NCBI GenBank assembly: GCA_036229005.1
Contig: JAZAMN010000036.1
Coordinates: 1 to 64,000, forward strand
Source of the DNA: Myxococcota bacterium
GTDB lineage: Bacteria; Myxococcota_A; UBA796; CAJQPC01
Reading direction: 5' to 3'
Length of the DNA: 64,000 bases
In this document: positions 45,697 through 59,057 of the stretch, piece by piece
Numbering within the stretch: the first letter of the stretch is position 1
Layout: every line of letters begins with the position of its first letter
Program-made: the position numbers and the translations under genes
The notes under the pieces: model-generated
What the model saw: only the letters and a program-made list of their open reading frames with translations
What the model was told of the DNA's origin: nothing
Databases searched by the model: none

Positions 45697-46251
45697 TCAG
45701 AAGAGGCGATCCGGGTCGCAGGACCAGTTGTCACAGTCCACCACGTGCAGCCGGAGCACGCGCACCGTGGTCTGGGGCCCCGGATCCACGCGCACCTGCA
45801 CGCTGTGCTCCGCGCCCTGCCCGCCCTGGGGCAGCTTCATGACGCGCACCCAGCCCTGGGACTGATCGCCGCTGCTGATCCAGCGGTACTTGGTCACGGC
45901 GCTTTGGCCCTCCAGGAAGGCCTCGCCCGAGAAGTCGATCGCCCCGGGCTGCCCGTCCACCTCCAGCTCACCGCTGAGCCAGGGGCGCTGGAAGTGGTGC
46001 GAGACGTCCAGCTCCACCCAGATCTCCTGGGCGTGCGGGCCCTCGGTCCAGCGCAGGGTGTCGGCCACGCCGGGGTCCAGGGCCAGCGTGCTCTGGGGCT
46101 CCGAGGGGAGCATCGCCAGCATCATCGCCGCAATGACACCGGCGGTCCCTGCGAACAACAGCAGCGCACCCAGGGTGGATGCGGCCATCACCCCAAAGCT
46201 CACGGCCGTCAGGCCAAAGAGGAAGCGTCTGTCGTCGGACATCGCCGACAT
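45697..46251 (-). CDS. Hypothetical membrane-anchored protein with beta-rich domain
   Basis: N-terminal hydrophobic segment; start could be 46251 or 46242. Confidence 0.6.
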   Translation of the reverse strand: MSAMSDDRRFLFGLTAVSFGVMAASTLGALLLFAGTAGVIAAMMLAMLPSEPQSTLALDPGVADTLRWTEGPHAQEIWVELDVSHHFQRPWLSGELEVDGQPGAIDFSGEAFLEGQSAVTKYRWISSGDQSQGWVRVMKLPQGGQGAEHSVQVRVDPGPQTTVRVLRLHVVDCDNWSCDPDRLF

Positions 46252-46273: not shown

Positions 46274-47719
46274 GTGGAGTCCATCTCGTCCCAGCAGCGC
46301 CTGTTGATCGCCGGCTGCGGCCCCGTTCGCTGGCTGCGATCCGACCACGGCGTCTTCGGAGAGCACTGGGAGCGCGGCAGCTTCGGCGCCCACGCCGCCC
46401 TGTCTCCCGAGGGCACGCGGCACGGTCTGCTCGCCGGGATCCCCGGACCGGGCGAGGGGCGCGTGAGCCTCAGCGGCCTGATGGATCGCGAAGCCTGCTG
46501 GCTCCCTGAGCCCGACTACACCGGAGACCCCGAGCTCATCCCGCTCCCCTCCGACGCGCAGCTCCCCCCCGTCCCCAGAGTGCCCGCGCTGGAGGGCCTC
46601 GCCCGCGCCGTGGGGAGCTGGGCCTCCGTCGAGCTCGGCGGCACCGGCACCCTCGCGATCCGCCGCGGCTGGAGCTCCGAGCGGGCGCGCAGCATCCTCC
46701 ACGCCATGGGCCAGGTCGGCTGGCGGCTCAGCTACCTGGAGGACACCCTCGCGCTCCCCCCCGGCGGCCGCGCCCTGTCCCGAGACGGCCTCTTCCTGCG
46801 CCTGGTCGACCCGGAGCAGGGGGATCTCGTCCTCCCCGTCGACGCCCACGTCGCCCGCGCCCTCAGCGGCCTGCGCAGCCTCTACAAGCAGCTCCTGGAG
46901 GCCGCCGGTCCCGAGCTCAGCGCCCGCTTCCTGGAGCAGGAGGAGGATCGCCAGGGCTGGTACGTACGCAGCCAGATCTTCCTGCGGGTGGTCGCCGGCC
47001 TCCGCGCCGAGCGGGAGGAGATCGATCTCGGCGGCGCCCAGGCCCCCCTCTTTGGCCGCTCTCCCGCCAACGCCCCCCAGGAGCTCGAGGCCCTGCACCG
47101 CCTGCGGGTGCGCGTCCGTTTCCCCCCCGCGGACACCTCCGACTGGCTGCAGAAGGTGGAGAAGCCAGGATTCCTGCGTTCGCGCTCGGGTCGCATACGG
47201 GTCGGGGGTCTGGGGTGGAGTCGCCCTGGGTTGCTGCTCCTGGACGCCGGCGAGGACAACAGCGCGCTGATCCGCGGCCTGGAGTCCCTGGGCGTTTCGC
47301 CCGAGCCCCTCTCGCTGGATGAACTCGCGCCGCGGCTGGCCCCCGGGGTCGAGTTCGCCGCCCTGCACCCCGGCTTCGTCCCCGTGCAGGAGCGCACCGC
47401 GCCCGTCCTCAGCGGCCCCGAGATCGTCGGCCCCGAGGTCGGCCTGGAGCCCGAGCAGCCCCAGCAGGCGGAGCAGGCCCTCCCGGAGACCCCCGCCGAG
47501 TCGGCGCCCGAGCTGCCCCAGCGCCCCTTCGAGCCCCAGGTCCTGGAGCTCAGCACTCCGCATCGCCGGGACTCCCTGCGCCTGAGCGTCGAGGGGGCTC
47601 CGATCGACGTGAGCCTCAACCCCCTCGGCGGCGGCCGCGGGCGCTACCTCATCGAGGGCACCGAGCTGGCCCATGGCGCCTTGCTGCGCGTCGACTTCGA
47701 GCCCCAGGACGCCTCGTGA
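46274..47719 (+). CDS. Hypothetical protein, first gene of the Hsp70/vWA operon
   Basis: In-frame GTG at 46274 preceded by TACCCT-N6; Pro/Glu linker before a small C-terminal domain; GTGA overlap with the next gene. Confidence 0.7.
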   Translation: MESISSQQRLLIAGCGPVRWLRSDHGVFGEHWERGSFGAHAALSPEGTRHGLLAGIPGPGEGRVSLSGLMDREACWLPEPDYTGDPELIPLPSDAQLPPVPRVPALEGLARAVGSWASVELGGTGTLAIRRGWSSERARSILHAMGQVGWRLSYLEDTLALPPGGRALSRDGLFLRLVDPEQGDLVLPVDAHVARALSGLRSLYKQLLEAAGPELSARFLEQEEDRQGWYVRSQIFLRVVAGLRAEREEIDLGGAQAPLFGRSPANAPQELEALHRLRVRVRFPPADTSDWLQKVEKPGFLRSRSGRIRVGGLGWSRPGLLLLDAGEDNSALIRGLESLGVSPEPLSLDELAPRLAPGVEFAALHPGFVPVQERTAPVLSGPEIVGPEVGLEPEQPQQAEQALPETPAESAPELPQRPFEPQVLELSTPHRRDSLRLSVEGAPIDVSLNPLGGGRGRYLIEGTELAHGALLRVDFEPQDAS

Positions 47720-50685
47720 GCCTCTGCCCCGGCTGTCAGGCCCCCGCCGCCCAGTGGGACCGCTACTGCGGCCGCTGCGGCACCCCCTTGGCCCGCTTGC
47801 GCTGGCAGCTCGCCGATCAGCAGCGCGAGCTGGGGGAGGACGGTCGCGTCGCGGTTCGCCGGGGCAGCCACGCCCTGCGCCTGTCCGTCGCCAATGAGGG
47901 CAGCGTCCCCGCCGGGCTGGTGCTCCCCGCCGAGGCCCTCGCCGAGCTGCCCCCCTGGATCGACCGCGCGCGCCTGGAGCGCCTGCAGGAGCGAGCGATC
48001 ACCCTGGAGCCCGGACAGGAGCAGGAGCTGGCGATCCCCTTCGCCACCGCCGAGCTCGAGCGCGTGTTCGCCGACCGCGGTCAGCAGGGCGCGCCGCTCT
48101 CCGCCCGCCTCCAGCTCCTCACCACCCTCTGCCAGCTCAGCGAGGGCGGCTGGTCCCCCCGGCCGCTCCACCTCTCGCTCGTCGTCGCGCGCGAGCCCTG
48201 GTTCTCCCCCGCCGGCAGCCACTACCGCTTCCTGCCCAGCGAGCGCCTGGCCGAAGGCCTGCACCACGAGCTCACCCTCCACAACGAGTCCGCCGAGGAG
48301 GTCGAGATCCTGGGCTTCTCCCTGGAGGACCTCCCCGACGCGCCCCCGAGCTGGGCCCAGGACGCCGCCCGCCTGGACGCCGCCCAGATCCTGGAGGGCC
48401 TGCCCAGCGCCGAGCACACCCTGCTGGCCCCCGGCGAGCAGCGGGTCATCCGCCTGAGCTTCGCGAACCCCGCGCTCAAGGGGCTGGGCTGGTTCTCCCT
48501 GCGCCTGAGCTGCCGCTACCGCCACCGCAGCGCCGGGCAGGTCTTCGCCGTGGTCCAGGGGGTCGTGGGCGCCGCACCTCGCTTGACCTGTGATGCCCCT
48601 GAGCCGCTCGGACACCCCAGCGTCGAGAGGGATGAGGTCCACACGCTCGTCCTCCGCAATCCCGGCGACCTCCCCCTCAAGATCACCGGCGTGGAGCTGC
48701 TCCGCGGTGACGCTGTGGCCCCCGCCCGGGATTGGCTGCGGGTGGAGGGCCTCGCGCCCGGTGAGATTCTGCCTCCCGGCGGCGAGCGCGCCCTGCACTA
48801 CACCCTCAGCGTCGCGGACCGCCCCGAAGACGAGTTCGACCAGGCCTGGTCCAGCCGGCGCCTGCGCATCCACCACGACGGCGCGGGGGCGCGGGTCCTG
48901 GAGCGCAGCGTGGACGCCCAGCTCGGCGTGGTGCAGGTCCCCACCGGCGTCTTCATGGGCGTGGACTTCGGCACCTCCAACTCCATGGTCGTGCTCCTGC
49001 GGCCGGACACCCGGGCGAACGTCGCCCTCAAGCTCGAGGGCGAGAGCGAGCAGCTCCCCAGCCTGATGTACTTCCTGGGCAGCAGCCCCTCCGGGCGCAG
49101 CCAGGGCTTCCTGTTCGGGCGCGAGGCCGACGCCCACGCCGAGCTCAACCCCGCCAACCTCGTGCGCTCGATCAAGTCGGTCATCAGCCGCTCGCCGGAC
49201 ACCTGGTACCACTTCCTGGAGCGCTCCCCCGAGGGCGCCTGGCGCCGCCGCTCCTACCGCCCCCAGGAGCTGCTCGACCGCTTCATCATCGAGCTGCGCC
49301 GCCGCGCCGAGCGGGCTGTGTCCGGGCTCTCCATGCAGCAGCTCCGGGCGCTGCGGATCGGCCCCAAGGTGCGCTTCCGCCAGGCCATCTTCTCCCACCC
49401 GGTCGAGGTCGACGCCGCCATGAAGGAGGCGCTGATGAAGGCGGCCCACGCGGCGGGGCTCAACCTCCAGCTCCAGAGCGCGGAGGACTTCATCGAGGAG
49501 CGCTGCGTCGACGAGGCCACCTCGGCGGCGCTCGCCTACGTGTACGCGCGCCTGGACCCGGGCTCGCGGGTGGGCGTGGAGCACGAGCTGGGCAACCGGG
49601 AGCGCGTGATCTGCGTGGACATCGGCGGCGGCACCACCGACGTGGCCGCCGTGGAGATCCTGGACCTCGCCGACTTCTGGGACCAGGCCGTCGAGCAGGT
49701 GCGGGTCGAGCTCCACAGCACCGCCGGGGACCCCCTCTGGGGCGGCGACGATCTGGACCTGCTGCTGGCCGGCTGGATGCTCGAGGAGATCCGCGAGCAG
49801 AGCGCGCGCCAGGGGGCCGCCATCCTGGACCAGGAGATCCTGCACGCCGCCGGCTTCCGCAGCTTCGGCGAGTACTTCAACGGCTTCCGCGCCCGGCAGG
49901 TCGTCCGCGGCAGCGAGGCCCTCGGGCAGGCCCAGGCCTTCTACAACAAGGCGGTCGAGGTGCTCCGCAAGGCCGAGGCCGCCAAGCGACGCCTCTCCGA
50001 GCTGGACCGGGTCGAGGTGCGCCTCTCCGACCGCGACTGGCCCCGCAGCGGCGAGCAGCCGGAGCAGGAGGCGGAGTTCCGCGTGGTGCTGGAGCGGCAG
50101 CGCCTGGAGCGCCAGGTCCGGGAGGACGCGCGGGCTCGGATCCCCCTCTTGGAGCGGGTCGTTGGCGCCGCGCAGTGGGAGTGGCCCACCGTCTCCACCG
50201 TGCTGTTCACCGGGCAGGGCAGCCGGGTCCCGTCCATCCGCGAGGAGCTGGTGCAGCACGTCCAGCAGCAGCGCGCGGGTAGCCCCGACAAGCTGCTGGT
50301 GGTGCAGCCGGACGACCGGAGCGGCTTCGACCCCAAGCGCTGCGTGGGCATGGGCGCCGCCATCTGGGGCACCCGGGAAGACGGCGAGTGGATCTCGGTG
50401 CGGCGCCGCATGCGCTTCGAGCTCACCCACGACCTCCAGACCCGCTGGGGGCCCTTCCACTTCCGCACCGTGCCCGGGCTGGAGCGGGGGCAGAGCCTGC
50501 CCGCCCAGGCCACCGTCGACTTCCGCAAGCCCCGCCAGACCCTGGAGCTGTTCCGGGACGGAGCGCTGTACATGAGCTTCACCTTCCCCGAAGCGGTGGA
50601 CGCCATCGAGCTGCAGGTGCGCGGTCCCGGCGACATCCTGGCCGTCGCGGGCGCGCTCCAGATCCCCGGCGAGGTGCTCTCGTGA
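47716..50685 (+). CDS. Zn-ribbon + Ig-like repeats + Hsp70-family ATPase fusion protein
   Basis: CPGC...YCGRCG; LSVANEG, LTLHNES and LVLRNPGD Ig-like strands; Hsp70 NBD motifs GVDFGTSNS, DEATSAALAY, DIGGGTTDV, GGDDLD, AEAAKRRLS, TGQGSRVP and VGMGAA. Confidence 0.88.
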   Translation: MSLCPGCQAPAAQWDRYCGRCGTPLARLRWQLADQQRELGEDGRVAVRRGSHALRLSVANEGSVPAGLVLPAEALAELPPWIDRARLERLQERAITLEPGQEQELAIPFATAELERVFADRGQQGAPLSARLQLLTTLCQLSEGGWSPRPLHLSLVVAREPWFSPAGSHYRFLPSERLAEGLHHELTLHNESAEEVEILGFSLEDLPDAPPSWAQDAARLDAAQILEGLPSAEHTLLAPGEQRVIRLSFANPALKGLGWFSLRLSCRYRHRSAGQVFAVVQGVVGAAPRLTCDAPEPLGHPSVERDEVHTLVLRNPGDLPLKITGVELLRGDAVAPARDWLRVEGLAPGEILPPGGERALHYTLSVADRPEDEFDQAWSSRRLRIHHDGAGARVLERSVDAQLGVVQVPTGVFMGVDFGTSNSMVVLLRPDTRANVALKLEGESEQLPSLMYFLGSSPSGRSQGFLFGREADAHAELNPANLVRSIKSVISRSPDTWYHFLERSPEGAWRRRSYRPQELLDRFIIELRRRAERAVSGLSMQQLRALRIGPKVRFRQAIFSHPVEVDAAMKEALMKAAHAAGLNLQLQSAEDFIEERCVDEATSAALAYVYARLDPGSRVGVEHELGNRERVICVDIGGGTTDVAAVEILDLADFWDQAVEQVRVELHSTAGDPLWGGDDLDLLLAGWMLEEIREQSARQGAAILDQEILHAAGFRSFGEYFNGFRARQVVRGSEALGQAQAFYNKAVEVLRKAEAAKRRLSELDRVEVRLSDRDWPRSGEQPEQEAEFRVVLERQRLERQVREDARARIPLLERVVGAAQWEWPTVSTVLFTGQGSRVPSIREELVQHVQQQRAGSPDKLLVVQPDDRSGFDPKRCVGMGAAIWGTREDGEWISVRRRMRFELTHDLQTRWGPFHFRTVPGLERGQSLPAQATVDFRKPRQTLELFRDGALYMSFTFPEAVDAIELQVRGPGDILAVAGALQIPGEVLS

Positions 50686-52256
50686 GCTTCTCCTGGGATC
50701 CCGACAACCGCCGCTTCGTCACGGTCACGCGCTGCCCCTGGCCCGGCTGCGGAGCCCCCGCCGAGCCCTTCCACCAGGGCGGTCTGCAGGGCTGGTGTCC
50801 TCGCTGCGAGCGGCCCTATGCGACCAGCCTGGAGCCACCATCCCAGGGCGGTGCACCCGTCGAGTGGAGCCTGTGCCCGACCAGCCTCTTCCACACCTTC
50901 ACGGGGCGGCGCCTGGAGGGCTACAGCCCGGTGGACTGGCCCGAGGCCAGCGGAGGCCCCGAGCGCAGCGGCTGCGCGGATGACCCCCGGGGCAGCGTCT
51001 TCGGGGCGCCCAATCCCCTGCACGGTTGGGGCCTGGAGGAGGCCTGGACCCTCCCCAGCATCGCGCCCCAGGAGCAGAACAGGGTGGGGGACGCCGTCGC
51101 CGCCGTGGCCGTGATGCGCGGGCGGGTGCTGGCCGTGAGCGCCCGTGGCCGCATGTCGCTGGTGGAGCCCTTCACCGGCGAGCTCCTCAGCCAGCGCCCC
51201 ATCGACTGGCCGGGCTTCCCGACGCCGGATGCCGACCACCCCGTCGCCTTCACGCCCGTGGTCCGAGGCAGCCGGGTCGTCCTCGCCAGCGCACTCCAGC
51301 TCCTCTTCCGGGACCTCGCATCGCAGCTCGGTGCCGGCCCCAACCAGGGCACAGAGAGCTGGCGGGTGGTGGGCCCAGAGAGTCCGGAGCGCCGCTTCGT
51401 CGGTCCTCCCCTGGGCCTGGACACGCCCGAGGGCCCCAAGGTCGCCGTCCTCGAGGCCGACGCCGAGTCCCGCCAGGGCCTCGCCAACCCCGTGCTGCGC
51501 TTCTTCACCCTGGACGGCCAGGAGCTCACCCAGTGCCCGGTGCAGGGCATCGTGCGGCCCCCGGTGTTCGATCGCCGCTCCCAGCAGCTCCTCTGGCTGG
51601 ACGCCGCTGGCTTCCTGCACCGCCTCCCCGCCGACGACCTCAGCCTCCCGCTCCCGGCGCTCCCCACCGACCCGCTGCTCCCCCTGAGCCCCAGCCTGCA
51701 CCCCACCTTCGCGCTGGCCGAGAACGCCCGCGGGGACACCGAACTCTGGGTGGGGCGCGTCGACCGCCAGGGCGTCCTGGAGCTCTGCCGCTGTGACCTC
51801 CAGGAGGCCGAGAGCCGCGGGGAGCTCCGCTGGGTGCGCCGCAAGGTCGGCGTTCGCGGAGCACTGTTGGCCCTCTCGGTGGGGCGCGGTCCGCACCATC
51901 GCCAGAACCTCGCTGGACAGCTCCTGGCCGTCAGCACGGACCAGGGCGTCTTCTCCTTCCCCAAGGATCTCATCGACGCCATGGAGCACGGCGCGGCCCG
52001 GGGGCACGAGACCGCCGATCTGCGCGGGAGCTGGGATGCGCCGGTCATCTGCTCCGCGGGGGTGCTCGCGCGCGTCCAGGGGCGCGTTCAGCTTCTGGAG
52101 CAGGGCCTCCCGTGGGGGAGGAGTCAGCGGCCATCCGTCGCGCTCCCGGTGCGCTACCCTCGGCCCCAGGGCCTGGCGCTCTACGGCCGGCTGCTCATCA
52201 TGGGCGTCTCCATGGGGCTGCAGGCGCTGCGCATCGTGCCGGAGGGAAGACCGTGA
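50682..52256 (+). CDS. Zn-ribbon + PQQ-like beta-propeller protein
   Basis: CPWPGC...WCPRC; DWPEASGGPERSG resembles the pre-propeller motif of PQQ/BamB-like proteins; repeated TPVV/PPLG/PPVF/APVI blade starts; GTGA overlaps at both ends. Confidence 0.65.
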   Translation: MSFSWDPDNRRFVTVTRCPWPGCGAPAEPFHQGGLQGWCPRCERPYATSLEPPSQGGAPVEWSLCPTSLFHTFTGRRLEGYSPVDWPEASGGPERSGCADDPRGSVFGAPNPLHGWGLEEAWTLPSIAPQEQNRVGDAVAAVAVMRGRVLAVSARGRMSLVEPFTGELLSQRPIDWPGFPTPDADHPVAFTPVVRGSRVVLASALQLLFRDLASQLGAGPNQGTESWRVVGPESPERRFVGPPLGLDTPEGPKVAVLEADAESRQGLANPVLRFFTLDGQELTQCPVQGIVRPPVFDRRSQQLLWLDAAGFLHRLPADDLSLPLPALPTDPLLPLSPSLHPTFALAENARGDTELWVGRVDRQGVLELCRCDLQEAESRGELRWVRRKVGVRGALLALSVGRGPHHRQNLAGQLLAVSTDQGVFSFPKDLIDAMEHGAARGHETADLRGSWDAPVICSAGVLARVQGRVQLLEQGLPWGRSQRPSVALPVRYPRPQGLALYGRLLIMGVSMGLQALRIVPEGRP

Positions 52257-54178
52257 TCGCACTCGCACTGGCTCTGGGCTGCGCGCTCGAGGGCGCCGGA
52301 GATCCCTTCCCTGACGACCCCGCCATGCTCCCGGACGAGGTCGCGAGCTGCGTGGCCGGCGAGCTCCCCGAGCGGGGCCTCCAGGACAGCCAGCGCAGCG
52401 TGGATCGCAGCGCAGGAGGGCGCTTGAGTGGGCCCGCCCCGGAGATCGGCAGCGCCGGAATCCCCACCGTGGTCGCCCTGGACTACTCCGGGTCCATGTT
52501 CGGCGGCTACGAGCGCGACCAGCCCAGCACCGGGACCTGCGGTTGGAGCCGCTCCTCGCGCGGCGGCCGCTCACCCAACGGGGACTTCTACTGGTCCACC
52601 CCCGGCTTCAAGGGCCTGCTGGAGGGCGGCGTGCTCTCCGGGATCCAGCCCCAGGACCCGACCTGGGCCATGCTCTTCAACGCAGCGCCCATGGTCTTGG
52701 ATGGGGAGGGCGGCGCCGTGGTGTGGGACCAGGGTTGGCCCACCACACCCCCCTCGGCCCACGACAACCTCGACACCCTGCTCACCGGCGAGGACATCGG
52801 TGGCAGCCTGCCTGACGCCCCCTGGGAGGCCCGCTTCGGGCCGCGCCGCATGTGGGACTCCTCGCAGATGGCGCGCACCCTCGACGCCAGCGCGGAGCTG
52901 TTCCAGGGGCAGGAGCGGGGGGACGGCATCCTGTGGATCGTCACCGACAACATCATCGACACCGGGGACGGCGCGCAGGCCGATGAGGCCTCCCACAACC
53001 GGGCCTTCTACGAGAAGCTGGCCGCCGATCCGCGCTGGCAGGTGGTCTACGCCTGGCCGGTCTCCCAGGGCGACTGGCTCTGCGGCAGCACCCTGCTGGT
53101 CTATGGGCTCTACTTCTCGCCCCACGAGCGCCTGGACCCCGCGGCCTACGCGCGCCTGCACAGCGGCAGCCAGGCCCGGCTCTCGCGGCCCGAGCAGGTC
53201 CAGGCCTTCGCCAAGGTCGCCAGCGCCCGCTCTCCCGCGCCCGGTCAGCCCTTCAAGCTCAAGCCCGACGACCTGGACCTCGTGGAGCCCGAGTTCGTCG
53301 GGACGGTCGACTGCGGCGGCGCAAAGGCCACCGGCCTCGCGCGCACCTGCACGGCCCAGATCTCCCTGGACAACCAGCTCCAGCACCGCCGCGTGGAGGC
53401 CGCCACCCTGAGCCTTCAGGGCCAGCGCCTGGACGCCTGGGATCGCAGCCAGAGCCCGCCCGTCTCCGTGGTCACCGCAGTTCCCCTCGCCAGCGGCACC
53501 CTCAGCGCGCAGACCAGCCTGGAGGCCCCCATCGAGCCCCACCAGGAGGCCGTGCTGCAGGTCGCGCTCCAGGTCCCCCCCATCGAGACCCAGATGCACA
53601 CCCTCCGGGACCGCTGGGAGTCCGCGCAGCACCCCCGCTTCGGCATGGTCGGGCTGGTGGACATGGAGCTCACGGGGCTGCGCACCGCCATGGCCATCGA
53701 CCCCGCGCAGCTCGGCGAAGTCTACGGCGTCCAGTCCCTGCCCCAGGTCTTTGAGAACCCCAACACCGACCAGCTCTCGCGCACCGTCTGCGTGATGATG
53801 ACCGTCGACAACCCCAGCTACTTCTCCAGCATCGTGCTGCTCGTGCTGCTCGGCGGTGGGGGGCTCGGTCTCGTGGTCGGCACCTGGCTGCTCAAGCCCA
53901 CCTGGCGGCATGTCGTGGTGGACGGCGTCGCGCAGGGGCAGATCCGCCTGTCCCGCCTGCTCCCCCAGAGCATTCAGGTGGACGGAAAGGCGGTCGCGAA
54001 GGCGCGCCTGGACGCAGCCGGTCGCATCAAGCTGCGGGCCATCAAGCCCTACCGGGTCACCCCTCGCGGCGGCGCCTGGGAGCTGCGCCAACGCGACGAG
54101 GAGTTCGACGTGCGGCGCAAGCTGGAGCTGCGCGCTCGGGGCGCCAAGACCCGGGCTCGGCGCGGCAACGACTTCTAG
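52253..54178 (+). CDS. Exported, membrane-anchored vWA-domain protein
   Basis: Short hydrophobic N-terminus with LALGC; MIDAS-like VVALDYSGSM and later WIVTDN; TM SIVLLVLLGGGGLGLVVGTWLL; basic C-terminal tail. Confidence 0.7.
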   Translation: MIALALALGCALEGAGDPFPDDPAMLPDEVASCVAGELPERGLQDSQRSVDRSAGGRLSGPAPEIGSAGIPTVVALDYSGSMFGGYERDQPSTGTCGWSRSSRGGRSPNGDFYWSTPGFKGLLEGGVLSGIQPQDPTWAMLFNAAPMVLDGEGGAVVWDQGWPTTPPSAHDNLDTLLTGEDIGGSLPDAPWEARFGPRRMWDSSQMARTLDASAELFQGQERGDGILWIVTDNIIDTGDGAQADEASHNRAFYEKLAADPRWQVVYAWPVSQGDWLCGSTLLVYGLYFSPHERLDPAAYARLHSGSQARLSRPEQVQAFAKVASARSPAPGQPFKLKPDDLDLVEPEFVGTVDCGGAKATGLARTCTAQISLDNQLQHRRVEAATLSLQGQRLDAWDRSQSPPVSVVTAVPLASGTLSAQTSLEAPIEPHQEAVLQVALQVPPIETQMHTLRDRWESAQHPRFGMVGLVDMELTGLRTAMAIDPAQLGEVYGVQSLPQVFENPNTDQLSRTVCVMMTVDNPSYFSSIVLLVLLGGGGLGLVVGTWLLKPTWRHVVVDGVAQGQIRLSRLLPQSIQVDGKAVAKARLDAAGRIKLRAIKPYRVTPRGGAWELRQRDEEFDVRRKLELRARGAKTRARRGNDF

Positions 54179-54196
54179 GATTTCAGAGGATTTCAG
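54177..54196. repeat. Perfect 10-nt tandem repeat AGGATTTCAG x2
   Basis: Read directly, upstream of the HDOD-GGDEF gene. Confidence 0.6.
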
Positions 54197-54244
54197 CCCT
54201 CAAGACGAAGCGATCCAAACCCGAAAAGGTGGGAGGAGGTCGCC

Positions 54245-55771
54245 TTGTCAAACCCTCAGGCTCTGGAAGCGCTCGACCCCGGCAAGCTGCCTGGAGCCCA
54301 AGCCACCCTGGCCGCGATCGCCCGTGAGGCGGGAGATCCGGAACTGTCCATCAACCGGCTCGCGCGCCTGGTTGCCCTGGAGCCCGGTCTCACGGTCGAG
54401 CTGCTCGAGGCCGCCAACCGCAGCGTGACCAAGCAGGGCTGTGTGAAGACGCCGCAGCAGGCCATCAGCCGGCTGGGATTCCGCTTTGTACGGAACCGGG
54501 CGGTTGCCCGGGTTGTGCGTTCGGCGAGCGCGGAGCTGGACACCGGCGGACTGGATGTACGTCGGCACTGGGAGGACTCGCTCAGGCGCGCCCTCGCAGC
54601 CCGGGTGCTCGCCGAGCGACTGGGCCACCGGGACCCCGAGGAGGTCTTCACCGCCGGCCTGCTCCAGGAGGTCGGGACCCTGTTGCTGGCCGCCCACGAC
54701 CCCGCCCGAGGTGAGGATCTGGAGCGCGTCGCCCATGAGCCCTCCGAGACCCGCATGCGCGTGGAGCGCGAGCTCTTCGGCCTCACCCACGACGAGGTCA
54801 TCCAGGTGGTCGGCGAGGCCTGGAACCTCCCGCCGGACATCCTCGCTCCGATCCGTCACCATCACGAGCCCAAGTCCTCGGAGCTGGGGCGGGAGGCTGC
54901 TCGGACCGCCACCTTGTTGGCCGCTGCGGATCGCATCGCCGACCTCTTCGTGACCCGCGGCGATGAGCGCGTTGTCCACCGCTGTCGCCAGGCCCTGGAG
55001 CAACTCCAGGGGCGGGGAGGCGTGGAGCTCGCCCAGGTGGTCCAGAGCGTCCAGAAGGGGCTCCCCAAGATCGCGAGCGAGCTCGGGATCGAGGTGGGGA
55101 GGCAGGCCTCCGTCGCCGAGGTGCTCACCGCCGCGACCTCCTCGCTGGTGCAGATCACCCAGGGCTACGAGAACCTCATCCAGCAGCTCGAGGAGGCCCT
55201 GCGCGAGAAGCAGGAGCTCGCCCGCCTGCTGGAGCGGAAGAACCACGAGCTGGAGGCCCTCGCGGCCACCGACCCGCTCACAGGGGCGGCCAATCGGCGC
55301 CGCTTCACCTCCCTCGCCCAGCGCGCCCTCAAGCAGCACTGCGCCGAGGGACGCCCGCTGACCCTGCTCATCTTCGACCTGGACCACTTCAAGAAGGTCA
55401 ACGACCAGCACGGGCACCCCGCTGGCGACGCGGTCCTCGTCGAGGTCGTGCGCCGACTCAGCCTCTCCCTGCGCGCGGACGACACCATCGCCCGTCTGGG
55501 CGGAGAGGAGTTCGCGGCCCTGCTCCCCGACACCGACGAAGAGGGAGGGCGGTTGGCCGCAGAGCGCTGTCGCAGGCGCATCGCCGAGAGCCCCATCGAT
55601 GCGGGGGAGACCTCGCTGTCGGTCACCTGCAGCATCGGGGGCGCTACGCGGACGGGCCTGGGCTCCCTGGAGGGCCTGCTCTCCGAGGCCGACCGGGCCC
55701 TGTACCACTCCAAGAGCTCCGGCCGGGACCGAGTGACCTGGTTCGGGGAGCGCGCGAAGGAAGCCGGCTGA
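54245..55771 (+). CDS. HDOD + GGDEF diguanylate cyclase
   Basis: HDOD (LLEAAN, AISRLG, AGLL.EVG, WNLP..I..HH); coiled coil; DPLTG, DLDHFK.VND, I-site RADD and GGEEF. Confidence 0.93.
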   Translation: MSNPQALEALDPGKLPGAQATLAAIAREAGDPELSINRLARLVALEPGLTVELLEAANRSVTKQGCVKTPQQAISRLGFRFVRNRAVARVVRSASAELDTGGLDVRRHWEDSLRRALAARVLAERLGHRDPEEVFTAGLLQEVGTLLLAAHDPARGEDLERVAHEPSETRMRVERELFGLTHDEVIQVVGEAWNLPPDILAPIRHHHEPKSSELGREAARTATLLAAADRIADLFVTRGDERVVHRCRQALEQLQGRGGVELAQVVQSVQKGLPKIASELGIEVGRQASVAEVLTAATSSLVQITQGYENLIQQLEEALREKQELARLLERKNHELEALAATDPLTGAANRRRFTSLAQRALKQHCAEGRPLTLLIFDLDHFKKVNDQHGHPAGDAVLVEVVRRLSLSLRADDTIARLGGEEFAALLPDTDEEGGRLAAERCRRRIAESPIDAGETSLSVTCSIGGATRTGLGSLEGLLSEADRALYHSKSSGRDRVTWFGERAKEAG

Positions 55772-56674: not shown

Positions 56675-56750
56675 TGGCAGGGGCACTAGGACTTGAACCC
56701 AGGACCTGCTGATTTGGAATCAGCTGCTCTACCAACTGAGCTATACCCCT
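56675..56750 (-). tRNA. tRNA-Trp (CCA)
   Basis: AGGGGTATAGCTCAGTTGGTAGAGC..GCTGA-TTCCAAA-TCAGC..GGTTCAAGTCC..CCCCTGCCA cloverleaf with encoded CCA. Confidence 0.95.
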
Positions 56751-56811
56751 CCAGCGCCTTCGCTTCTATGGTCGGGCGGGTTCCCCGTCAAGGCTTTGGG
56801 GCGGAAATCGC

Positions 56812-57666
56812 TCACAGACCCGGGAGGGAGATCCACCCAGCCGCCGCCGCACCCGCGAAGGCCGCGATGGCGAACAGGTAGGGCGAGAACCAGGAGAAGT
56901 CTCCGCGCTTGACCAGCTTCACCAGCAGCAGCAGGGCCAGATAGCCGCTCACCATCGAGGACAGGAAGCCGCCGCTCATCACCCCCAGGTCCAGGCTGGA
57001 GAGGTCCGCGTCCTTCGCGGTGAGCACGAATGCCCCGGAGATGGCTGGGATCGCCAGCAGGAAGGAGAAGCGGGCTGCGAGCTCGCGGTCCAATCCAAGG
57101 AACAACGCCACCGCGATCGTGGTGCCCGAGCGGCTGATCCCCGGGGTGATGGCGAGGCCCTGCGCGACGCCGATGACCAGTGCGTGCCACCACTGGAGCT
57201 GTCCCTGGGACACCACGGCCCGGGAGGACAGGCGCTCGCGCAGGCTGGCGAAGGGGCCGCCCCCCGGAGTGGTCAGGCGGGTCGCCAGGAGCAGCAGGCC
57301 CGTGATGCTGAAGGTCACGGCCAGCACGCCCAGGCCCGAGAAGAGCTCCTCGAAGACATCCTTGAACGCCACCCCGATGATGCCCGTGGGCACGGTCGCC
57401 AGCAGGACCATCAGCCCCAGGCGGGTGGAGGGGCGCTCACTGAGGGGCCCCCGCTCGGTGAAGGGTGCCTTGAGCATGCCCAGGATGTCGGCGCGGTAGA
57501 CCCACAAGACAGGCACCAGCGTGCCCACGTGGACCACCAGGTCGAAGAGGACGGTGTCCCCCACGACGGGGAAGATCTTGCCGAAGAGCACCAGGTGTCC
57601 AGAGCTGGACACGGGCAGGAACTCGGTGAGGCCCTGGATGAGGCCGAGCAGTAGAGCGGAGAGCAC
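56812..57666 (-). CDS. uppP: Undecaprenyl-diphosphate phosphatase
   Basis: QGLTEFLPVSSSGHL, PGISRSGTTI and FSFLLAIPA motifs. Confidence 0.96.
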   Translation of the reverse strand: MLSALLLGLIQGLTEFLPVSSSGHLVLFGKIFPVVGDTVLFDLVVHVGTLVPVLWVYRADILGMLKAPFTERGPLSERPSTRLGLMVLLATVPTGIIGVAFKDVFEELFSGLGVLAVTFSITGLLLLATRLTTPGGGPFASLRERLSSRAVVSQGQLQWWHALVIGVAQGLAITPGISRSGTTIAVALFLGLDRELAARFSFLLAIPAISGAFVLTAKDADLSSLDLGVMSGGFLSSMVSGYLALLLLVKLVKRGDFSWFSPYLFAIAAFAGAAAAGWISLPGL

Positions 57667-57701
57667 GCCCGCGTCTAACGCGGCGTGGTCTCAGATGGGG
57701 C

Positions 57702-58016
57702 CTACTCCGCCTTGAAGGTCTTGAGGTAGGCCACCAGGCTGTCCATCTCCTCGTCGCTGAGCTGCGGGAAGGGGGCCATCGGGGTGCCGGGCTTGCCCGC
57801 CTTGATGGAGGTCTTGAGGGCGTCGTCGCTGCGGCCGTCCCAGAATGCGGGCTTGGTGAAGTCCACGGGCTTGGGGGCCAGGGCCATCGCAGCGGGGCCC
57901 TCGCCGTTGCCGGCGTCTCCGTGGCAGGCCATGCAGTTCGCGGTGTAGACCTGCTTGCCGCGGTTCAGGTCCGCGCTCATGGTGGCGGTGGTGAGCATCA
58001 GGGTGAGCAGGGTCAT
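57702..58016 (-). CDS. Class I cytochrome c
   Basis: CMACH heme motif; GKPGTPM distal Met; GGAGG SD before ATG 58016. Confidence 0.9.
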   Translation of the reverse strand: MTLLTLMLTTATMSADLNRGKQVYTANCMACHGDAGNGEGPAAMALAPKPVDFTKPAFWDGRSDDALKTSIKAGKPGTPMAPFPQLSDEEMDSLVAYLKTFKAE

Positions 58017-58091
58017 GGGAACCTCCTGCGTCATTGTACGCGCTCCGGACCCCCTGTCTTCAACCGGCGGGTGCCCACGGCTCCCAGAGGC

Positions 58092-58511
58092 TCAGGGTCC
58101 CGTGGTCTTGGACTGGTCGGGGAGGGGAGTGCCGGGCTTGCGCTCTCCGCGGTCGAGCATCCCCAGGTAGCGGAGGACCAGGTCGGCGTCCTTGACCGGG
58201 TTCTGGAAGCTCTCCCGGAAGGCAGGCATGTCTCCCTTCCCGTTCAGGATGATGTCCACCTGGGCCTGCTGGGTCTCTGGGTCCATCTTCCCGCGCAGGT
58301 CGGGAACGCCCCCGGGCAGCGCAGCGGCTGCAGGGCCCTGGCCGTCGTTGGATTCGCCGTGGCAGGCCTGGCACTGCTCAACCCAGATCCGCATGCCCCG
58401 GACATCGTCCGGCTCCCGCTTCTTGGGGACACCCTTGGCGAAGGCCAAGCTGGCCACCATGGTGGACAGGACCAGGACCGGGAGCACTCGACGGAGGGGG
58501 GGCAGCGTCAT
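58092..58511 (-). CDS. Class I cytochrome c
   Basis: Signal peptide; CQACH; GKGDMPAF. Confidence 0.9.
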   Translation of the reverse strand: MTLPPLRRVLPVLVLSTMVASLAFAKGVPKKREPDDVRGMRIWVEQCQACHGESNDGQGPAAAALPGGVPDLRGKMDPETQQAQVDIILNGKGDMPAFRESFQNPVKDADLVLRYLGMLDRGERKPGTPLPDQSKTTGP

Positions 58512-58676
58512 GGTCTCAATCTAACGTGGCGCCGCACTGGGGGCGGGTTCGGCAAGAGAATCTCGCTTCTCCCTGGGCAATCAAGAGAGTGATCGCATTC
58601 TTTTTGACGCAGGCGATCCCAAGGATTACCTATAGGGGGCCTCAGCGAGAGGCACCGAGAATCTCGGTCTTTGAAA

Positions 58677-58749
58677 GGGCGGGTAGCTCAGTTGGGAGAG
58701 CAGCAGTTTTACACACTGCGGGTCACAGGTTCGAGCCCTGTTCCGCCCA
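58677..58749 (+). tRNA. tRNA-Val (TAC)
   Basis: Cloverleaf with GCAGT-TTTACAC-ACTGC anticodon arm; CCA not encoded. Confidence 0.93.
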
Positions 58750-58779
58750 CTTCTCTCGCTTGAAGACTGCCTGATCTGT

Positions 58780-58856
<77 letters not shown>

Positions 58857-58860
58857 TCCT

Positions 58861-58891
58861 AAGCCGCCTTGCGCAAGCAGGGCGGCTTTTT
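58861..58891 (+). terminator. Intrinsic terminator after tRNA-Asp copy 1
   Basis: AAGCCGCCTTGC-GCAA-GCAGGGCGGCTT hairpin followed by a T run. Confidence 0.8.
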
Positions 58892-58980
58892 GGCGTTTTC
58901 CCATAGGGTAGAGCCCCTTCTTTTATGAAGCGGCGCGTTCTTTGCGGGTGGGCGCTCCACAGCACCCCGCCTGAAATTCT

Positions 58981-59057
<77 letters not shown>

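Follow-up and report, generated by a model that had tools for sequence, protein, structure and literature searches.

The window analysed in this work is a 64,000-nucleotide stretch at the start of contig C36 (JAZAMN010000036.1) of a Myxococcota bacterium genome (GCA_036229005.1, here G000; 6.4 Mb, 94% complete), and it carries a run of four coupled genes, P1 to P4, predicted to encode an actin/Hsp70-fold protein, an Hsp70, a zinc-ribbon beta-propeller protein and a membrane protein with a vWA domain (von Willebrand factor A; Table 1). These genes are half of a system whose other half, on contig C62 of the same genome, includes a tubulin-like GTPase of the Tubulin_2 (FtsZl1) family, and the two halves are kept together even where, as here, the operon is split. 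Because of that split, the cluster is a variant of the previously predicted FtsZl1/vWA system and not a standard member of it. Our preferred reading, which we hold at about even confidence and whose binding steps are conjectural, is that the complete set would make up an envelope-sensing machine whose private Hsp70 cycle gates the assembly of a tubulin-like polymer.

Scans with an alignment of P4 served to collect relatives of the operon, 16 loci from genomes and 13 from metagenomes, and gene order was assessed by clustering and profile searches. Near-duplicates among the 29 loci are L019, which equals L035, and L014-L016 and L030-L032, which belong to the genus of G000 (own genus). In intact form the operon reads P1, Hsp70, a GrpE-like gene, propeller, vWA, a gene for a protein with three transmembrane (TM) helices (3-TM), the Tubulin_2 GTPase and a transglutaminase-like gene; in G259 the whole operon stands in one run. 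The propeller gene lies immediately 5' of the vWA gene in 29/29 loci, and the Hsp70 gene lies upstream in all 17 loci that reach far enough (the other 12 end earlier). Of 24 assessable loci, 21 have a GrpE-like gene between Hsp70 and propeller, the three exceptions being from the own genus, and a P1-family match precedes Hsp70 in 11 of 14, the remaining three having a same-sized gene with a weak match or none (E 2e-5, 0.16 and 7). The 3-TM and Tubulin_2 genes follow directly 3' of the vWA gene in 6 of 23 assessable loci, and in G259 as well; other genes take that place in 17 of the 23. Orthologues of vWA and FtsZl1 share one operon in G259, L022, L023, L024, L037, L040 and L041. The initial annotation had described P1 to P4 as a candidate unnamed system, to be given up if homologues of the four genes were not co-located elsewhere. 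They were co-located, in conserved order, and the proposal of a conserved, unnamed trans-membrane system stood; the four-gene boundary did not, as the 3-TM and Tubulin_2 genes, and usually the GrpE-like gene, belong to it too.

Several loci vary this order. G031 reads 3-TM, tubulin, P1-like, Hsp70, propeller, an AAA/kinase insertion and vWA, the insert between the propeller and vWA genes (L012:4885-14304) measuring about 9.4 kb and encoding a protein of 1586 aa that has two P-loop regions, another of 275 aa and a Ser/Thr kinase whose gene is coupled to the vWA gene; the own genome has relatives of the first two insert genes, side by side, on its contigs C27 and C20. Three GrpE-like genes stand in tandem in L041 (L041:4551-8278) and two in L025, and two divergent vWA paralogues in tandem were seen in L023, L024 and L025. 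The Hsp70 gene of L037 (L037:3298-6200) and the propeller gene of L021 (L021:1999-3602) are each in two frames, through a frameshift or an assembly error.

Co-occurrence was examined at two scales. Among 41 relatives, P4 and P2 were carried by the same seven, and a full-length tubulin orthologue (at least 446 bits) was found in six of these seven; the remaining 34 relatives had none and gave only distant tubulin-domain or C-terminal matches below 100 bits. In an even sample of the phylum (401 genomes, with few candidates scored per genome, so that counts are floors) the propeller was found in 5/401 and the tubulin orthologue in 5/401, in the same five genomes; a search with a stricter first look found no tubulin orthologue at E 1e-40 in the 396 propeller-negative genomes. 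All ten further vWA-positive genomes held the tubulin, some in contig pieces, bringing the vWA-positive genomes that hold it to 17/18. These counts bear on the possibility, closest to the initial annotation, that P1 to P4 are a self-contained four-gene system with the Hsp70 in the place of MoxR and tubulin genes merely frequent neighbours. Such a system would fit the translational coupling of the four genes on their own, their separation from tubulin in 17 of the 23 assessable loci, and genome G019, where no tubulin was found; the presence of both halves in 17 of 18 genomes, the lack of the orthologue from the propeller-negative genomes and the prediction of vWA and Hsp70 on opposite sides of the membrane argue against it. 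We consider it very improbable, and co-occurrence largely refutes it.

The split was also followed in trees. Over nine genomes or loci, the main forks of the tubulin tree match those of the Hsp70 tree (the latter a quick version). In the tubulin tree, whose deep nodes are weak, the intact L037 and the split own genus are sister groups (support 1.0), the split G039/G414/G415 clade lies outside, and the split G419 lies elsewhere. Since L037 groups with the split own genus and the split G039 clade falls outside both, the same junction appears to have been broken at least twice, or rejoined, with both halves kept. An assembly artefact was considered and rejected as the origin of the split in G000, because both break points (C36 and C62) lie mid-contig and are common to G001 and G003.

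The tubulin half on C62 comprises genes for the 3-TM protein, the tubulin, an unrelated lipoprotein, a degenerate kinase-like protein and two exported TM proteins, one of them transglutaminase-like. Its Tubulin_2 gene is the only copy in the own genome, has the GTP motifs LIGLGGTG and LAGGTGSG, and shows 84-85% identity within the genus, compared with 83-84% for Lon. The kinase-like remnant after the tubulin matched Pkinase at E 0.01 in L037 and gave no match in the own copy. The C-terminus of the tubulin holds two repeats, with a weak GYF_2 match in L041 (E 7e-5, under the cut-off). GYF domains bind proline-rich stretches, and the Pro-rich linker of P1 is a candidate partner for these GYF-like repeats. 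A transglutaminase-like gene lies 3' of the tubulin in own C62, G001, G003, G039, G259, L024, L037, L040 and L041 and does not adjoin it in L022 or G031; the protein, with a TM helix at its C-terminus, has Cys, His and Asp motifs, and its family match falls under the cut-off. Directly after the tubulin half on the minus strand of C62 (C62:57097-61883, also L043:2098-6884), in the same order in G001 and G003, lie two TerD-looking genes unmatched in Pfam, one TerB-like gene (E 0.002), a gene of the Na/Ca-exchanger family and an M48 peptidase gene with a weak TerB match. In L022 and G259 the operon has true Ter clusters next to it. Other, distant Tubulin_2 genes encoding 1000-1300 aa were also seen, in different neighbourhoods, in many of the relatives that lack the system (G024:C67, G034:C25, G012:C143 and others).

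Operons of FtsZl1 (Tubulin_2, PF13809) and vWA genes were predicted to form a membrane-remodelling machine by Makarova and Koonin in 2010 (PMC2875224), with a diverged GTPase, a protein kinase and OmpA/MotA proteins as partners; the two genes lie in one operon in the "majority" of cases, which is typical and not required. In the accessible part of that paper, Hsp70, DnaK and GrpE go unmentioned in the main text by keyword, and the neighbour table holds one GrpE-annotated gene (Cagg_1315) and one Hsp70 (amb2961), of other sizes and in other contexts. The system described here shares with these operons a long FtsZl1 with intact GGTG loops, a membrane or exported vWA protein with an intact metal ion-dependent adhesion site (MIDAS), lineage-specific TM proteins, weakly kinase-like neighbours and a purely predicted function; the FtsZl1 features of an N-terminal tubulin-like domain with a GGGTG(S/T)G-type loop and a length of about 1000-1300 aa were found in the C62 protein, outside the window. 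The published FtsZl1 proteins are further marked by an extended coiled coil and a C-terminal region of helices. It differs in that the scanned part of the neighbours showed neither a diverged P-loop GTPase nor an OmpA/MotA pair, in that it carries a fixed module of Hsp70, pseudo-Hsp70, GrpE-like protein and zinc-ribbon propeller, and in that vWA and FtsZl1 are not in one operon in the own genome, the vWA gene being on C36 and the FtsZl1 gene on C62. The earlier statement that the exact combination could not be matched to a named system held for the gene set, which is unnamed; with its 3-TM and Tubulin_2 genes the system is a variant of operons already predicted in 2010. Neither an experimental study of FtsZl1 tubulins nor a paper on the P1-P4/tubulin gene set was found in the literature searched, with most subscription papers outside reach.

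P4 is predicted to be a lipoprotein that would be held by a lipid anchor, with periplasmic vWA and immunoglobulin (Ig)-like domains, an inner-membrane helix and a cytoplasmic tail. Its layout comprises a lipobox Cys10, a vWA domain (residues ~67-335), an Ig/LEA-like sandwich (~336-520), a TM helix (~524-543) and the tail (~549-641). With a permissive pattern, 38/38 aligned rows showed a hydrophobic N-terminus that runs up to a lipobox-like Cys, and the MIDAS residues (D77/S79/S81 of the DxSxS motif, S/T204 and D232) are kept in all 38. A TM helix was called in 37/38, followed by a basic, beta-rich tail of about 95 residues (Lys plus Arg 16-25 versus Asp plus Glu 6-14). P4 gave no match to Pfam, and its structure was modelled at a predicted local distance difference test score (pLDDT) of 89.2. 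With VIA-align, residues ~60-335 matched RGLG2-VWA (Z 8.6), Sec24 (Z 8.2) and many other vWA domains (Z 7-7.7), and residues 332-520 matched the Ig/LEA-like sandwich of TMEM106B (Z 8.7); Foldseek with the P4 model matched mainly the sandwich domain. The vWA Z values are middling, and many unrelated vWA entries agree. An FHA domain in the tail had no Pfam support, and the structure searches barely covered the tail.

P3 is predicted from its sequence to be a cytoplasmic adaptor or scaffold with a PQQ-like propeller. In its N-terminal zinc ribbon C18, C39 and C42 are invariant in 20/20 members. The P3 profile matched the designed propeller Ika8 at E 9.8e-8 over four stretches; matches to Pfam PQQ_2 were weak (6/20 members, best E 0.0025), and PQQ propellers made up the ESM Atlas leads (0.82-0.84). 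No TM helix was predicted.

P2 begins with a zinc ribbon (residues 4-21; four Cys invariant in 13/13 homologue rows), continues with three beta-sandwich (Ig/PapD-like) repeats (~27-409) and an ATPase domain (~410-890), and ends, after this nucleotide-binding domain (NBD), in about 100 beta-rich residues without a helical lid. The ATPase domain matched Pfam HSP70 at E 2.1e-17. Residues D417, G419, T420, K487, E600, D635, G637-T640, E754 and K757 are invariant in 13/13, and since this set covers the phosphate-1, catalytic and phosphate-2 residues, P2 is probably an active ATPase. The repeats are mutually related (hhalign probabilities 94.9 and 78.8), and the sequence pattern suggests that they have an Ig fold. 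P2 falls outside canonical DnaK/HscA: its catalytic residues are intact, but its NCBIfam scores lie far under the cut-offs (76 bits versus 648 for DnaK, 70 versus 620 for HscA), and it has no recognisable lidded substrate-binding domain, the C-terminus giving no significant match to that of DnaK. Neither a TM helix nor a signal was predicted.

The features listed for these proteins by the initial annotation, namely an Hsp70-type ATPase, a propeller-like protein, zinc ribbons at the start of both, and a DxSxS vWA protein with a TM helix and cytoplasmic tail, were all borne out, the last also by matches of the P4 model to vWA structures; the annotation had overlooked P4's lipoprotein signal, P1's likeness in fold to Hsp70 and the tubulin half. 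Its proposal that the Hsp70 acts as a MoxR-like chaperone of the vWA protein failed on the predicted topology. The vWA domain is predicted outside, between lipid anchor and TM helix, and P2 has no TM helix or signal; as the membrane is predicted to separate the two, the Hsp70 cannot be the MoxR-like partner.

P1, formerly listed as an orphan, is predicted from its structural model to be a catalytically dead Hsp70-fold protein, a pseudo-ATPase. By sequence it belongs to no Pfam family, was not placed by PDB profiles, and gave no significant hhalign match to P2 or to ten own-genome Hsp70-like proteins; its ESM Atlas leads all lie below 0.9. Relatives are few (44 at E 0.001 among 1.84 billion representatives). 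The AlphaFold2 model (36-row alignment, pLDDT 88.9) consists of an actin/Hsp70-fold domain (residues ~3-370), a Pro-rich linker (371-416) and a small C-terminal beta domain (~420-478). Its best Foldseek matches were Ssz1, BiP and the Hsp70 NBD (E 4.5e-4, probability 0.97), and all of the top 43 VIA-align rows were actin/Hsp70/FtsA-type folds. The VIA-align matches were Sse1 (Z 10.8), BiP (10.4), Ssz1 (10.0), the Hsp110 NBD (10.0) and MreB (9.6), with root-mean-square deviations of 6-7.6 A (about 7 A, with 275 residues aligned, for Sse1 and BiP) at 6-12% identity. The nucleotide motifs are lost: DxG[TS] near the N-terminus was found in 1/36 members and DxGGG in 0/36. In L022 the fold domain is replaced by TerD, the P1 C-terminal beta domain being fused behind it (L022:2812-4305; PF02342 E 9e-26) at the same operon position, and in L026 (L026:1-687) probably likewise, the beta domain following a partial, TerD-looking, Pfam-negative region at that position. 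A P1-P2 fusion in G259 (1675-aa frame) was rejected, as the upstream part is off-frame. Comparison of the P1 C-terminus, the P2 C-terminus and the P4 tail as homotypic small domains was not significant. P1 beside P2 resembles the eukaryotic Hsp70-Hsp110 (Sse1) and Ssb-Ssz1 pairs, in which an active Hsp70 stands next to a degenerate Hsp70-fold protein; it differs from these pairs in that P1 has neither nucleotide motifs nor a helical lid bundle, and it is likely of independent origin. In the accessible part of PMC13580251, NBD paralogues in bacteria are proposed to serve canonical DnaK, whereas the partner of P1 would be a private Hsp70. PMC13580251, PMC3495828 and 10.64898/2026.10.19.760177, each as far as its accessible part goes, are used here as analogies only.

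Among the GrpE-like proteins the N-terminus is variable, 8/10 carry a TM helix, and the C-terminus is of the GrpE type. No GrpE-like gene was found within the P1-P4 cluster, nor a system-specific one elsewhere in the own genome by profile search, the best matches there being ordinary GrpE-like genes at E of at least 0.003, compared with at most 1e-14 for true members; at least three ordinary GrpE-like genes lie elsewhere in G000. The GrpE-like gene is absent from the own genus and G031, both of which keep a P1 or P1-like gene, and L022 and L026, where the P1 fold domain is replaced or probably so, keep the GrpE-like gene. These complementary losses give a thin hint that the two roles overlap.

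Taken as an envelope-sensing machine, the system could work as follows, with P1 to P4 as its receptor-and-chaperone half and the polymer half on C62 acting in trans. P4, held by its predicted lipid anchor and TM helix, would bind an exposed periplasmic peptide through a Mg2+ ion in the MIDAS. Its basic tail, probably with the 3-TM protein, may then recruit P3 as a scaffold, as the invariant adjacency of their genes suggests. The tubulin-like GTPase, whose GTP motifs are present, would polymerise under the membrane at the P4 site, and P2, with its conserved catalytic residues, would spend ATP to license or dismantle this putative target assembly, towards which the zinc ribbon and the three sandwich repeats would direct it in place of a lidded peptide pocket. 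The nucleotide state of P2 may be set by the membrane-anchored GrpE-like factor (in most genomes), by the Hsp110-like P1, or by both; in the own genome only P1, by its predicted fold, would be left for nucleotide exchange. The output would be local envelope remodelling or containment upon damage or contact.

Several points weigh against this. The likeness of P1 to Hsp70 is structural only, and actin/MreB scores nearly as high, so that an exchange-factor role for P1 is only an analogy. The GrpE likeness lies under the Pfam cut-off (best E 0.0059, 4/10 members), and the GrpE/P1 complementarity amounts to two plus two lineages, most loci keeping both. G019 has the Hsp70/vWA half and no tubulin was found in it (73% complete, 1040 contigs). 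The related genomes are not independent, so that co-occurrence and tree agreement are overstated, and the vWA-tubulin identity correlation is weak (rho 0.34). A bolder version, an integrin-like relay in which a periplasmic MIDAS receptor triggers assembly of the tubulin-like polymer, the gate being an Hsp70/pseudo-Hsp70 heterodimer that evolved independently and whose dead copy replaces GrpE, with the tubulin GYF-like repeats gripping the Pro-rich linker of P1 and so joining the loci in trans, is in our judgement unlikely.

An immunity function was weighed against the sensor reading. In GAP1-N2 DO-GTPase systems (Kaur et al. 2020; PMC7159879, accessible part), the tubulin theme and the Hsp70-GrpE theme are described as not overlapping, and both are built around a DO-GTPase/GAP1/FNIII core in Firmicutes and Actinobacteria. 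Shared with those systems are a tubulin, an extracellular vWA domain on a TM protein, an Hsp70 (in relatives with a GrpE-like gene, scoring under the Pfam cut-off, that was not found in the own genus), zinc ribbons, GYF-like repeats and a second Hsp70-domain gene lacking a peptide-binding domain, P1 being far more degenerate; unlike them, both themes are joined here, and the DO-GTPase/GAP1 core was not found in the own genome. There, DO-GTPase PF19993 and GAP1-N2 PF20013 gave no match, their controls having rung in Corynebacterium glutamicum, and PF19975 gave none either, uninformatively, as no control rang. In an immunity system of this kind P4 would sense a phage or an attacking cell, P1 would be an inactive decoy for invader proteins aimed at host Hsp70 or MreB, and the polymer would contain the infection or kill the cell. 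The rare, patchy distribution (5/401; homologues under Myxococcota, Thermoanaerobaculia and other record titles), the varying copy number (three GrpE-like genes in L041, two vWA genes in L023-L025), the exchange of the P1 fold domain for TerD, the AAA and kinase genes inserted in G031, the adjoining Ter clusters of L022 and G259, and the fact that predicted conflict systems include tubulin and Hsp70-GrpE themes as well as inactive decoy domains (PMC7159879, accessible part) would all suit it. An anti-phage role had also been suggested initially, with a PADLOC check; against PADLOC-DB 2.0, none of nine own-genome proteins (P1 to P4 and four C62 components among them) matched at E 0.01, and one of three L041 proteins, a neighbour there, gave a weak PDC-M16B match (E 4e-4). 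The own genome lacks DO-GTPase2 and GAP1-N2 matches, no nuclease, NADase or pore effector was recognised, and a plasmid search with P4 and a phage search with P3 found no match, on which a mobile element was likewise rejected. P1 to P4 hold a fixed place among housekeeping genes, and P2-P4 diverge like their neighbours, with P1 alone faster. On balance the immunity reading is possible and somewhat doubtful.

The transglutaminase-like gene allows a further reading, modelled by analogy on MoxR-vWA-YebA operons, as membrane protein quality control or surface assembly: the periplasmic vWA protein would feed the exported transglutaminase-like peptidase, and Hsp70 and the tubulin-like GTPase would pull or hold from inside. 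That gene's place 3' of the tubulin in the loci named above, own C62 included, fits this, and the same logic was proposed for MoxR-vWA-transglutaminase-like operons (PMC3495828, accessible part). The transglutaminase match is under the cut-off, however, the gene stands away from the tubulin in L022 and G031, P2 has no lid or recognisable peptide pocket, and the constant partner is the tubulin, not the peptidase; we regard this reading as quite improbable. The system resembles MoxR-vWA ternary systems, including their beta-propeller subtype (PMC7159879, accessible part), in having a vWA domain with MIDAS, a propeller and an NTPase chaperone near the membrane, but its propeller is on a separate zinc-ribbon protein and not fused to the vWA domain, and the vWA domain is predicted to be periplasmic. 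The operon's conserved genes and the immediate flanks that were scanned, with no search aimed at MoxR, showed no MoxR gene, and an inserted AAA gene occurs in G031 alone.

Within the window, the four co-oriented genes and their 4-nt GTGA overlaps were confirmed as first described (Table 1). The GC content at third codon positions of the four open reading frames (ORFs) is 0.91-0.96. Homologues of P1 start immediately before the RLLIAGCG stretch, leaving the start of P1 itself uncertain by a few codons. P1, P3 and P4 have no paralogue in the own genome; P2 is one of 11 Hsp70-like frames, the ten others lying on C62, C49, C31, C36 (C36:98653-100215), C52 (four), C40 and C34. The reported lack of an adjacent DnaJ or GrpE gene held, in that a crude HPD pattern found no DnaJ-like motif in the window and no J-domain partner was identified; for MoxR the claim had no specific search behind it. 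A promoter and terminator scan found no signal exceeding chance. A divergent membrane-protein gene (window 45697-46251, minus strand) has its likely start about 22-31 bp from that of P1, and no sigma-70-like promoter was found. An HDOD-GGDEF diguanylate cyclase-like gene (window 54245-55771, plus strand) begins 66 bp past P4; its position there is conserved in the own genus only, and it is probably outside the P1-P4 system. Four tRNA genes (Trp, Val, Asp, Asp) follow at window 56675-59057, and then genes which we take, from their sequences, to be HU, Lon and ClpX. Genus-level identity is 64-73% for P2-P4, 58-77% for neighbouring genes and 51-56% for the faster P1, and the place of P1-P4 among housekeeping genes is fixed throughout the genus.

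Table 1. Features of the P1-P4 operon (window coordinates) and of the tubulin half (coordinates on contig C62)
Feature	Location	Strand	Size	Description
P1 ORF	46274..47719	+	481 aa	predicted actin/Hsp70-fold pseudo-ATPase
P2 ORF	47716..50685	+	989 aa	private Hsp70
P3 ORF	50682..52256	+	524 aa	zinc ribbon and predicted PQQ-like beta-propeller
P4 ORF	52253..54178	+	641 aa	predicted double-anchored, receptor-like vWA protein
GTGA stop/start overlap, P1-P2	47716..47719	+
GTGA stop/start overlap, P2-P3	50682..50685	+		GrpE-like gene sits here in most relatives
GTGA stop/start overlap, P3-P4	52253..52256	+
Break point	54179..54244			after P4; 3-TM protein and Tubulin_2 genes follow here in intact operons
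Tubulin half	G000:C62:61932-69799	-		3-TM, tubulin, lipoprotein, kinase-like, exported TM, transglutaminase-like
Tubulin_2 protein	G000:C62:65404-69366		1320 aa	PF13809 E 9e-57, over cut-off

The system is rare, and the records found here are all metagenome-derived. Because the GrpE-like gene was lost in two lineages, the P1 fold domain was swapped and the operon was split at least twice, these natural knock-outs point to Hsp70, propeller, vWA, 3-TM protein and tubulin as the core. For the FtsZl1 tubulins, the system thus offers a fixed parts list with natural knock-outs around them. P2 would be a test case for the role of lidless DnaK derivatives in large-genome bacteria, and the P1/P2 pair one for bacterial Hsp110-like cochaperones, both as raised in the accessible part of PMC13580251.

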